Assembly (NCBI GenBank): GCA_002011475.1
Contig: MTNP01000051.1
Location: 8,694-72,693, forward strand
Length of the DNA stretch: 64,000 nt
Reading direction: 5' to 3'
Origin: Dehalococcoides sp. JdFR-54
GTDB taxonomy: Bacteria > Chloroflexota > Dehalococcoidia > JdFR-54
The notes below the pieces were generated by a model that had not been told where the DNA came from, made no database searches, and saw only the letters and a program-made list of their open reading frames with translations. Positions 38,740 through 40,882 of the stretch are shown here, one piece after another. Position numbers and translations under genes: made by a program. How positions within the stretch are numbered: the stretch's first letter is position 1; every line of letters begins with the position of its first letter.

Positions 38740-39165
38740 TCACACCGTTTGCTCAGGCACAATCTCTACTCCAAAATCGGCAAAATCACTGTCAAATGCG
38801 AATGCGCACCCGTATTGGTACCTGCTCGCGACACAAAACGTCGTACAATCAACGAAACTATAGTCCTTGTCCCTACGTTGCTGGAATAGTCCCCACGCCT
38901 CCTTTTCCATGTCTGGAGTTATCTCAATTATGATTATCTCTCCCTGTTCAGCACCAACTTCGAGCAACTCCGAAAAATAAAGAGCGGCTGCTTTCCCGAG
39001 TTTCCTCTGTATCAAAGTAGCCGACTCTTCCCTGATTCTATCAGTTGTAATTAGGCGATGCTTTTTGCTCTGAATCTCTGCCCAAAACTTGATCGCTGCC
39101 GCATGGTTCTTGTCCCGTCTATTTTGCAAAGCAAACCATGCTGAAGTATCCACCAGTATATCCAT
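38740..39165 (-). CDS. PIN-domain (VapC-like) toxin
   Basis: ILVDTSAW, D..H..A, YSFVDCTTF, FAFDSDF motifs. Confidence 0.9.
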   Translation of the reverse strand: MDILVDTSAWFALQNRRDKNHAAAIKFWAEIQSKKHRLITTDRIREESATLIQRKLGKAAALYFSELLEVGAEQGEIIIIEITPDMEKEAWGLFQQRRDKDYSFVDCTTFCVASRYQYGCAFAFDSDFADFGVEIVPEQTV

Positions 39166-39170
39166 TCAAA

Positions 39171-39440
39171 CTAGAGTTTCCGATACAGATAGTCATCATG
39201 CCTTTCCGAAACGTCTTCGAGCTCATTTACATCTACAGGACGAATGTCAAAGAGCGACGAGGGTCTTTCAATGTAAACGTCTTCCTCCTCAAGTTCAATG
39301 GTCGAACCTGTAACGTAGGTATTTTCTCCCCTCCAACTACTTGTCATGACGTCTACTTGCAAGTGTTCCTGTTCGCTTGGAGATAAGCTATTGAAATCTA
39401 TAGAACCTCCACCAACACTGATGCTTTCATTATTCCCCAT
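39171..39440 (-). CDS. Small acidic protein, probable antitoxin of the PIN gene
   Basis: Directly upstream of the PIN gene; C-terminal DVSERHDDYLY resembles antitoxin tails seen beside VapC genes. Confidence 0.6.
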   Translation of the reverse strand: MGNNESISVGGGSIDFNSLSPSEQEHLQVDVMTSSWRGENTYVTGSTIELEEEDVYIERPSSLFDIRPVDVNELEDVSERHDDYLYRKL

Positions 39441-39465
39441 ATGTCATCCTCCATTTTGCTTTCTA

Positions 39466-40194
39466 TTATGCCATGCATATGGCTTTCGCCACCCCCAGAA
39501 GTTCCGTTCTGAACGAGCAAATCTGCCCCTGCACGTTTTCTATTATCCTCTGTATATCATCATCGTGGAGTCTTTGATAGCCCTGGGACTTAGTCACAAT
39601 TGCCAACTGGATCGGTCCGCCAACTGTCGTCTCAACAGTTGTTGTCTCCAAGAAAACGAAAACCGCAAGGTTACATAGCTGCTTGACCGAAATCTCTGGG
39701 TAATAGGTCACTTCTACCAGGTACTGCGCTATATGCCACTGAGCCGCAGCGAAAATCGGGGACGCCACTATTTCCTGTATTTGAAACGTGGGTGCTTCGT
39801 AGCTTACGATTCTGAACTGTTTAGTCTTGACATCATCATATCCTGCAATGACAAATCCTAGAGAACCGGACCCCTGTCTTACTCGAGGTTTAACATCTTC
39901 GGGTATCTCTTGAGTCTTGTTCAACCATTCCTCAAACTCGCTCTTGAACACTTTCGATGCAGATTCGATTATTTGGTCAAAGGTAGAGTATTGATTGATT
40001 TTTGTTTCATTTACTAACCTAGTTATGCCTGCATAACCCGGAGCAGCTATGCCGTACGTCATGACACCAACGTCACGACTTACCTGCAGGAACTTCTCCG
40101 AAGTATCTCTCGTTTCCCCGCGAGGTGATGTAACCCTACTATCAGATGCAAGAACTAAACCGTCTGCCGCTCGTATGGCCAAGGCAAGCGTCAC
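39466..40194 (-). CDS. Proteasome beta-subunit-like Ntn hydrolase, N-terminal Thr retained
   Basis: (M)TLALAIRAADGLVLASDSR..EK; C-terminal TVGGPIQLAIV; no propeptide; GSG motif diverged. Confidence 0.78.
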   Translation of the reverse strand: MTLALAIRAADGLVLASDSRVTSPRGETRDTSEKFLQVSRDVGVMTYGIAAPGYAGITRLVNETKINQYSTFDQIIESASKVFKSEFEEWLNKTQEIPEDVKPRVRQGSGSLGFVIAGYDDVKTKQFRIVSYEAPTFQIQEIVASPIFAAAQWHIAQYLVEVTYYPEISVKQLCNLAVFVFLETTTVETTVGGPIQLAIVTKSQGYQRLHDDDIQRIIENVQGQICSFRTELLGVAKAICMA

Positions 40195-40222
40195 TTCTGG
40201 CCCCCCCTTTACAATTAGGAGA

Positions 40223-40882
40223 TCAACGTGACTCGGTGAAAAGAAAAGTTAGACGACTTTTCAAATCTAAGGAAAGTCCTATGACTCGGCTCATTATCTC
40301 AGCCATCTCCTCTTTTTCCGCCCATTGAAGCCCGCCTGGGTAAGTTATCGTAGCCATCCCTATGTATTCATCTAATCTATTGTGCAACGCAAGCTGGGAC
40401 TGAAAAACATAAAATGCAGCCAGTATCTTTGCCTGATTGACTGTCATATTGGGAGTATAGATCTTCCTATCAATGAATCTGGCTATGGAATTCATGCCTC
40501 CAAAGACATTTCCAGCAAATCCAATTACGTCAAACATCCTACTGGCATGGATACCCCGAAGCTCAACTCGGCCCTTCTCTCCAGGGTCAATCCCTGCAAA
40601 TATCAGTCCGGTGATTGGAATCTCTTTACCAGAACACTCCTTTTTACAGTGTTCGCTGCAAGCTTGGGCGAGGGAGTGAACGCTTTCAACAGGCTTTTTG
40701 GCGGATGGCAAATACGACTGCAGAAGATTTCGCCCAAAGTTAACATCGGGCTCAACAAGGACTGCCAATCGCTCTTCCACCTTCACCATACTTGGATTCT
40801 TCTCAGCCTGCAGATGATAACTCGTGTCTGATGCAAGAACCAAGCCATCTGCACACCTTATCGCAAAAACTAGATTGCCCAT
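40223..40882 (-). CDS. Proteasome-subunit-like protein lacking Thr1 (probably catalytically inactive paralog)
   Basis: MGNLVFAIRCADGLVLASDT aligns with the neighbour, with Asn at the Thr1 position; LIFAGID and Y.PNMTV.QA segments. Confidence 0.7.
   Translation of the reverse strand: MGNLVFAIRCADGLVLASDTSYHLQAEKNPSMVKVEERLAVLVEPDVNFGRNLLQSYLPSAKKPVESVHSLAQACSEHCKKECSGKEIPITGLIFAGIDPGEKGRVELRGIHASRMFDVIGFAGNVFGGMNSIARFIDRKIYTPNMTVNQAKILAAFYVFQSQLALHNRLDEYIGMATITYPGGLQWAEKEEMAEIMSRVIGLSLDLKSRLTFLFTESR

Follow-up and report, generated by a model that had tools for sequence, protein, structure and literature searches.

Paired proteasome-like subunits linked to a candidate toxin-antitoxin module in a mobile island of Dehalococcoides sp. 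JdFR-54

To our knowledge, neither substrates nor roles have been established for bacterial proteasome homologs other than HslV and the 20S proteasome of actinobacteria. Classical type II toxin-antitoxin systems rely on the host proteases Lon and Clp. A survey of 22 new proteasome-homolog families found no genomic context or co-occurrence that would suggest a function (Fuchs, Alva and Lupas 2021, PMC8665760); paired subunits go unmentioned, and the words “operon” and “paralog” are absent from it. Here we describe a four-gene cassette in which genes of these two kinds occur together. It lies in a 64,000-nucleotide stretch of Dehalococcoides sp. JdFR-54 (contig MTNP01000051.1, forward-strand positions 8,694 to 72,693; “the window” means this whole stretch, and coordinates count from its first letter). 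The cassette encodes two proteasome-like subunits, psA and psB, a small acidic protein and a PIN nuclease. The reading we prefer, to which we give a probability of roughly 0.45, is that the operon's own protease degrades the antitoxin and keeps it unstable, the ribonuclease (RNase) being freed when the antitoxin collapses. That there is some direct functional link, of whatever kind, between the protease and the downstream pair seems to us rather probable.

The original prediction, made from the sequence letters, did not recognise the locus as a described system, and our searches agree with it. None of psA, psB, the small protein, the PIN protein or the PemK variant described below matched PADLOC-DB 2.0 (E ≤ 0.1 or E ≤ 0.001). 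Our full-text literature search retrieved no paper joining a proteasome-like protein with a bacterial antitoxin operon and none joining one with defence or conflict systems, the combination “PF00227” and “defense” returning eukaryotic work only. In a paper on conflict systems “proteasom” was incidental only, and a 2025 preprint on protease-effector modules (PMC12642450) contains none of the terms “proteasom”, “Ntn” (N-terminal nucleophile) or “HslV”. Tripartite toxin-antitoxin-chaperone (TAC) systems are reported in a further preprint to function in phage defence (bioRxiv 10.1101/2024.02.24.581848).

The features of the cassette and its borders are as follows (aa, amino acids).

40918..40947, minus strand: promoter-like site TTGACT-18 nt-TATACT, 36 bp before the start of psA (10 of 12 positions match in a consensus scan)
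40223..40882, minus strand: psA, catalytically dead proteasome-fold subunit, 219 aa, starting MGNLVFAIRCADGLVLASD (hhalign against the psB family; AlphaFold2 and Foldseek)
39466..40194, minus strand: psB, active-type proteasome homolog, 242 aa, GTG start, MTLALAIRAADGLVLASD (Pfam Proteasome)
39171..39440, minus strand: small acidic protein, 89 aa, with a VapB-type tail SLFDIRP...DVSERHDDYLY
38740..39165, minus strand: VapC-type PIN ribonuclease toxin, 141 aa, beginning 5 bp past the antitoxin stop (Pfam PIN)
41088-41075: terminator-like hairpin between the upstream 205-aa gene and the cassette
37541-38593, minus strand: IS110-family transposase (DEDD_Tnp_IS110 and Transposase_20), 146 bp downstream of the PIN stop

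The original prediction had described an operon of four closely spaced genes, encoding a Thr1-less and a Thr1-containing proteasome-like subunit, a small acidic protein and a PIN nuclease, and this anatomy held on every point tested. Four open reading frames (ORFs) run from 40882 to 38740 on the minus strand, in the order psA, psB, small protein, PIN. They span about 2.1 kb, and the spaces between them, as read from the sequence, are 28, 25 and 5 bp. An independent gene caller had called the same four products on another assembly of the locus. AGGGGG lies about 7 nt upstream of the psB start and GGAGG 8 nt upstream of the small-protein ATG. The only promoter-like site of the cassette is the one upstream of psA; the number of such sites in the region was not above the shuffled expectation, and it is only its position that is suggestive. 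The G+C content of the cassette segment is about 46%, as against about 60% on both sides.

Upstream of the cassette is a low-GC ORF of 205 aa (41132-41749, minus strand) without a Pfam, NCBIfam or PADLOC family, which seems to have come in with the low-GC patch that holds the cassette. We rejected it as a fifth cassette gene: it has no family, a terminator-like hairpin follows it, and the homology to the closest related locus (L085, below) starts past it.

The second gene product, psB, has the features of an active proteasome subunit. It matched Pfam Proteasome at 31.7 bits (cutoff 22.4), and in a sequence search of the PDB it matched both alpha and beta subunits of the 20S proteasome, with residues 3-220 aligning to residues 36-240 of alpha-5. 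Counting the Thr as residue 1 (numbering that includes the Met is one higher), Thr1, Asp17, Lys33 and Gly47 are all present. In an alignment of 26 homologs, all 26 begin with Met-Thr or Met-Ser; M1, D18, S19, R20, K34, G48 (Met-counted) and a VGGP motif are invariant or nearly so, D18, K34 and G48 being strictly invariant. An acidic residue before VGGP, located by eye in the alignment, is conserved at the presumed place of Asp166. The protein starts directly with Met-Thr, without a propeptide, and ends in a long C-terminal helix. Removal of Met ahead of Thr is expected from the specificity of methionine aminopeptidase. The AlphaFold2 model of psB had a predicted local distance difference test (pLDDT) score of 92.3 and a predicted template modelling (TM) score of 0.88, and Foldseek matched it to 20S subunits with an E-value of 9e-13, a probability of 1.0 and TM scores of up to 0.79 (actinobacterial beta subunits). 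By these residues and the modelled fold, psB is a complete Ntn protease. Its best match among the NCBIfam PrcA/PrcB/PsmA/PsmB models scored 32.5 bits, far below the equivalog cutoff of 219. Only 107 homologs were found among 5.8 billion proteins. Nearly all are metagenomic, and the few named ones come from metagenome-assembled genomes of Chloroflexota, Nitrospinota and Firmicutes.

The first gene product, psA, falls below the Pfam Proteasome cutoff (14.6 bits versus 22.4). Compared family to family with hhalign, psA and psB are nevertheless full-length paralogs (probability 99.7%, E = 1.3e-26 over 218 columns). In psA an Asn occupies the Thr1 position, where the column of 23 orthologs reads N, K, G or another residue. 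The Lys33 column of the same orthologs is not conserved (K/R/I/W/L), while the acid is kept as D or E. Two of 16 distant psA representatives have Thr in the Thr1 column, yet a two-residue leader precedes it and Arg replaces Lys33. The protein begins at the first beta strand and lacks the N-terminal extension of alpha subunits; a stop codon two codons before the ATG leaves no further in-frame start. Its AlphaFold2 model (pLDDT 90.0, from an alignment that included psB paralogs) matched 20S subunits at E = 1.2e-11 in Foldseek, archaeal alpha chains such as 1pma_A (TM 0.73) being among the best. The proteasome fold that had been expected of both proteins was thus returned for each. We conclude from the sequence comparisons that psA is a catalytically dead paralog. 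The family is rare: an exhaustive profile search found 50 representatives (E ≤ 1e-3) among 1.84 billion clusters, and a word-indexed search with psA alone found three proteins. Because psA lies much nearer to psB (E of 1e-26) than psA or psB does to the generic proteasome profile, the pair fits a duplication within the psA-psB lineage. The dead-plus-active pair would then apparently be a second, independent origin of the arrangement that defines true proteasomes.

A second proteasome homolog lies on the plus strand of the same genomic island, in a gene group at 52539-54083. This protein of 249 aa begins MTICVG, is of the Thr1 type and matched Pfam Proteasome at 55.4 bits. Only its C-terminal 97 columns align with the psB family, which places it in another, unrelated clade, and there is no inactive partner ahead of it. 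Two overlapping genes come next, the first for a DUF5678 protein (53254-53679, 46.7 bits) and the second for a retropepsin-like aspartyl protease (53670-54083) that is barely over its cutoff (24.4 versus 24.3 bits). The order Ntn protease, small protein, second enzyme is thereby repeated.

The third gene encodes a protein with a pI of 4.1 and 20 D+E against 6 K+R. Pfam, NCBIfam and PADLOC have no family for it; at E ≤ 0.1 neither Pfam nor NCBIfam showed any domain, hence no DNA-binding one, and a PDB profile search returned zero matches. Among four orthologs the N-terminal 60 residues are acidic and variable, whereas the C-terminus is invariant from R80 to Y86 (R-H-D-D-Y-L-Y) and is preceded by SLFD(I/M) and D(V/I)(S/A). 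A profile of the protein had only nine matches among 5.8 billion proteins. Four of these (P0116-P0119) carry the identical type of tail behind a different N-terminal domain, which in P0117-P0119 reads as ribbon-helix-helix (RHH) and in P0119 carries Pfam RHH_1. We examined the loci of P0116, P0117 and P0119: each gene overlaps a downstream PIN gene by 4 bp, in an ordinary two-gene VapBC arrangement without psA-psB. VapB antitoxins block their cognate VapC through the C-terminal tail. As the tail is common to the antitoxins of ordinary VapBC pairs, the most plausible reading of the small protein is a VapB antitoxin in which an acidic and probably unstructured segment has taken the place of the DNA-binding domain, and it would be expected to bind the PIN protein. 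Without a DNA-binding domain such an antitoxin would not autoregulate, and, with the only promoter-like site upstream of psA, the pair would transcriptionally be part of the protease operon.

The fourth gene product matched Pfam PIN at 43.2 bits (cutoff 23.6). Its nearest solved structure is VapC20 of M. tuberculosis (5wzf; E = 8.5e-18, 68 bits), deposited as a 23S rRNA-specific endonuclease. Its acidic active-site residues, D6, E46/47, D106 and D124 (in VDTS, EES, VDCT and FDSDF), align with their counterparts in relatives, and the protein is about 30% identical to the PIN proteins of two classic RHH-VapBC pairs (L092 and L093).

One group of relatives differs at the start of this gene. At L088 (1951-2427), and also at L089 and L090, the PIN frame extends upstream of the called start and through the essential VDTS motif, with no canonical start codon after the antitoxin stop. 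This indicates either a non-canonical or coupled start, or a toxin that is damaged at its N-terminus.

To follow the cassette among relatives, 14 genome loci and 69 metagenome loci were fetched, plus contigs for individual proteins (L-numbers denote loci). We defined the core family by a psB identity of at least about 40% to that of the window. In every core-family locus with upstream sequence, psA lies directly upstream of psB. The complete order psA-psB-small protein-PIN recurs in L085, L087, L088 and L091, where psB is 82, 59, 62 and 55% identical, respectively; the conserved linkage on which the original prediction depended is therefore real. Recurrence in independent metagenomes argues that the arrangement is not due to chance. 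The flanks of these four loci are unrelated (an SDH-family protease, a glycosidase, a Rep_trans and integrase element). Between the window and L085, DNA similarity runs from 40893 to 38771 only, which is the cassette, and begins 11 bp before the psA start. Synonymous sites are saturated between the two (pS 0.77-0.94), and the ratio of nonsynonymous to synonymous differences per site (pN/pS) is 0.14-0.21 for all four genes, including 0.20 for the small protein. All four cassette genes are under purifying selection. These comparisons describe what is in all likelihood a self-contained, horizontally mobile module.

A sister clade, in which psB is about 40-50% identical, carries a different pair. 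There psA-psB is followed by an unlike acidic protein of 113-119 aa without a Pfam domain, and then by a PemK/MazF toxin (Pfam, 45.7 bits). The clade comprises nine locus records (L003, L004, L006, L017, L022, L025 and L030, plus L019 and L044), one of which is a duplicate contig; L019 and L044 end before the toxin. Toxin type tracks the psB tree. The antitoxin-toxin pair was swapped as a unit between clades, then co-inherited with the protease. In both the PIN and the PemK clade the psA-psB-linked antitoxins have no detectable DNA-binding domain, and that the stripped form occurs with two unrelated families of toxin, each time after psA-psB, is in keeping with degradation by the operon's own protease. 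Two other toxin identities, PIN for a 60-aa fragment of L027 and RelE/ParE for a 95-aa ORF of L016, had been assigned by eye and were set aside, as neither has Pfam or NCBIfam support.

More distant relatives of psB (about 29% identity) are single subunits without psA (L014, L053-L057, L061, L076 and L095; L047-L049, L054 and L094). In each, the 3' end of the protease gene is overlapped or abutted by an ORF of 55-85 aa. Two sequence groups can be told apart among these ORFs, the first with (Y/F)S(V/I)xLxxG(L/I)V(I/V)TNPxQF and an acidic tail, the second with SSIQKINNxAYFIIDLPSYLGTI. The small ORF looks like a conserved partner of the protease in these loci.

The mechanism we favour may be put as follows. 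The dead psA and the Thr1-active psB would assemble into a two-subunit, proteasome-like, ATP-independent protease. The antitoxin would consist of an acidic, probably unstructured N-terminal part and a VapB tail, and the toxin would be a VapC20-like PIN RNase. Proteasome-type chambers that lack an unfoldase take unstructured proteins as their natural substrates. Degradation of such proteins by chambers of this type is also discussed in the survey of proteasome homologs (PMC8665760). Free antitoxin would be continually degraded by the operon's own protease, and neutralisation of the toxin would depend on continuous expression of the operon. Should expression stop, because the element is lost or a phage shuts it off, or should the protease be stimulated, the antitoxin pool would collapse and free the RNase, which would cut ribosomal RNA, by homology to VapC20 probably 23S rRNA. 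The logic would be that of classical addiction or abortive infection without dependence on host Lon and Clp. With a built-in protease the antitoxin would be intrinsically short-lived in any host, and the switch could be portable between phyla. Heteromer formation, the antitoxin as substrate, the trigger and a defence or addiction phenotype are the parts of this scheme that we infer. A broader version would make psA-psB a new, independently evolved alpha/beta-like mini-proteasome whose physiological task is to time or trigger portable abortive-infection modules from within, by degrading antitoxins without DNA-binding domains and so releasing interchangeable toxins (PIN, MazF and others); this version we regard as doubtful.

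Several observations weigh against the favoured mechanism. About half of the core psA-psB loci (some 12-15 of 27) lack a recognisable downstream toxin, and psA-psB can therefore not be called an accessory of toxin-antitoxin modules in the strict sense; many of these toxin-less loci still have a short acidic ORF right behind psB. Some relatives have apparently canonical antitoxin and toxin pairs after psA-psB, possibly as independent insertions. Judged by eye, L027 looks AbrB-like and L016, which matches no family, RelE-like, and at L001 a TumE-like ORF is frameshifted and under the Pfam cutoff (21.6 versus 23.4 bits). No homology could be detected between the small proteins of one clade and another (pairwise hhalign among five groups, probability <1%), and a common protease-recognition element is accordingly not demonstrated. 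The structural assignment of psA depends on an alignment that contains psB paralogs. The cassette itself encodes neither a sensor domain nor an unfoldase. The original prediction had proposed that the complex senses infection and degrades the antitoxin, and these parts of its interpretation, like protection against phage, found no supporting result; the anatomy, the conservation and the defence context (below) stood.

A motif read by eye in the small proteins of all clades (T[IL][ED][LV], VVELP, SLDLP, IIDLP) was dropped on the same hhalign result (<1%).

The strongest rival is that psA-psB has some unrelated function as a protease, in housekeeping or in stress, and that the downstream pair hitch-hikes, biochemically unconnected to the protease, as an independent addiction module or as a stabiliser of a mobile cassette. 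Toxin-antitoxin pairs are very mobile, the pairs found after psA-psB differ by clade, and about half of the loci have none. The cassette of the window, moreover, is in an integrative element and beside an IS110 transposase. On the other hand, the antitoxins of both the PIN and the PemK clade do not have the DNA-binding domain through which autonomous type II modules autoregulate, and their genes, which begin 0-25 bp behind psB, are preceded by no separate promoter-like site. The four genes have been inherited together from 82% down to 55% psB identity, with homology that stops at the cassette borders, and toxin type is clade-specific, not scattered. We therefore consider simple hitch-hiking unlikely.

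It could also be speculated that the protease is itself the effector. The small acidic partner would cap or inhibit psA-psB, a trigger would unleash the protease on host or phage proteins, and in some clades the partner would further have gained an antitoxin tail, together with a nuclease that serves as second effector. A short acidic ORF does follow psB in most clades even where there is no toxin (for example L024/L031/L036 and L016/L018), the distant single-subunit relatives have an overlapping small ORF with the motif G[LI]V[IV]TNPxQF, and the neighbourhoods are those of defence islands. However, the small proteins share no detectable homology between clades and show no sign of binding the protease, and chambered Ntn proteases without an unfoldase (20S, HslV, BPH) generally attack folded proteins poorly. 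This makes the protease quite unlikely as the primary effector.

Another possibility is an arrangement like that of type VI systems, in which the small protein would be an adaptor that brings the PIN protein to psA-psB for degradation, as SocA brings SocB to ClpXP, and the protease would be part of the antidote. The bipartite build of the small protein, whose toxin-binding tail is conserved while its N-terminal part varies, would suit an adaptor, and protease and toxin are co-inherited. The tail, however, is that of ordinary inhibitory VapB antitoxins, and a folded PIN protein would need unfolding, for which the cassette encodes no ATPase; we find this arrangement improbable. Maturation or ligation of the small protein by the Ntn enzyme in the manner of connectase, for a purpose unrelated to the nuclease, is highly improbable: proteasome homologs do include a specific ligase (PMC8665760) and the small ORF is consistently adjacent, but psB has plain proteasome topology without the S3/S4 helical insertion of connectase, and the conserved part of the small protein is an antitoxin tail.

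The cassette sits in a lower-GC stretch of about 30 kb (window positions of about 26 to 56 kb, up to about 56600), with a G+C content of 50-57% as against about 60% outside. The genes that mark this island and its defence content are listed here.

26193-28466, minus strand: TraG/TrwB-type coupling protein
30923-31765, minus strand: Replic_Relax relaxase
32509-33225, minus strand: HTH_36 protein
34025-37159, plus strand, inside the island: MoxR/CbbQ-like AAA_5 ATPase (502 aa), then a 515-aa protein without a Pfam or PADLOC match
42021-52382, plus strand: run of defence genes beside the cassette
within that run, plus strand: HTH_17/AbiEi_4-like ORF of 99 aa, overlapping the start of the type IIG enzyme gene
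42208-45585, plus strand, upstream of the cassette: type IIG restriction-modification enzyme, 1125 aa (PADLOC, 285 bits)
within the run, plus strand: 655-aa protein with a weak PLD-like match only
within the run, plus strand: HerA/mad8-like ATPase, 989 aa
within the run, plus strand: GmrSD_N and HNH type IV restriction enzyme (HEC-05/PDC-M55C/SspE-like)
55304-56404, minus strand: tyrosine integrase at the island boundary, adjoining a tRNA gene
56534-56605, minus strand: tRNA gene beside the tyrosine integrase

By its gene content, the island (about 26000-56600) is an integrative mobilisable or conjugative element. A similar defence context was found in several relatives, a point that the original prediction had asked to be checked. 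When ten neighbour genes were scanned against PADLOC, five matched defence models: BrxL, HKD and Snf2/DrmD-like, GajB/Cas4-like, type II restriction endonuclease-like, and PDC-M36A. The BrxL gene of the BREX system (L018, 1898-3733, minus strand, 852 bits) and the HKD and Snf2 helicase gene resembling DrmD of DISARM (L001, 413-3748, minus strand, 250 bits) each adjoin the psA-psB cassette and were each the single neighbour gene scanned at their locus.

Elsewhere in the window, a molybdenum cofactor riboswitch (Rfam RF01055, 71.8 bits) was found at 18585-18715 on the plus strand, ahead of ORFs at 18800-23705.

The cassette supplies a gene neighbourhood for the orphan proteasome homologs, with a candidate substrate encoded next door. 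If the favoured mechanism is true, it would be the first toxin-antitoxin or defence module to bring its own chambered protease instead of using host Lon and Clp, and it would offer a simple account of how such switches stay functional after transfer between phyla. The broader version, if true, would also give orphan bacterial proteasome homologs a first function and first substrates, and the proteasome fold would join the protease classes of prokaryotic immunity. With four genes in 2.1 kb and obvious point mutants, the hypothesis is directly testable.

Compared with described systems, the cassette belongs to no named one. It is not categorically new, as it combines known kinds: a toxin-antitoxin module, a protease-effector module and a proteasome homolog. 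With the 20S core of archaea and of actinobacteria (PrcA/PrcB) it shares the fold of psA and psB and the adjacency of genes for an inactive subunit and a Thr1/Asp17/Lys33 subunit. It differs in that psA lacks the N-terminal gating (H0) extension of about 35 residues found in alpha subunits, psB lacks a beta-type propeptide, and no Pup, Mpa or AAA partners accompany psA-psB. In its Met-Thr start psB resembles HslV. As in the orphan homologs (HslV, Anbu, BPH and the 22 families of PMC8665760), the Ntn protease, of the Thr1/Ser1 type, is divergent and has no cognate AAA+ partner, and as in the WPH and group II families of that survey, psB is similar to both alpha and beta subunits and has a long C-terminal helix. 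Judged by their descriptions, however, those families are single-subunit, whereas psA-psB has an obligate inactive paralog and a conserved downstream module.

Like VapBC, MazEF and PemIK, the cassette has an antitoxin gene immediately upstream of a toxin gene, and the sister clade has a PemK toxin; unlike that of type II VapBC, its antitoxin has no RHH, AbrB, HTH or Phd domain, and the pair stands at the 3' end of a protease operon. TAC systems likewise join a type II pair to a third, operon-encoded proteostasis factor that sets antitoxin stability. There a SecB-like chaperone protects the antitoxin, while here a two-subunit Ntn protease would destroy it, an effect of opposite sign. The protease-effector modules (bacterial gasdermin, CalpL-CalpT, Craspase-Csx30 and those linked to caspase, trypsin or subtilisin; PMC12642450) also place a protease gene beside a latent death effector, set free by proteolysis, in defence islands. 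Their proteases are site-specific and caspase-, trypsin-, Lon- or subtilisin-like, with no proteasome-type Ntn hydrolase among them, and their effector is a zymogen, whereas in the cassette described here a separate inhibitor would hold the effector.

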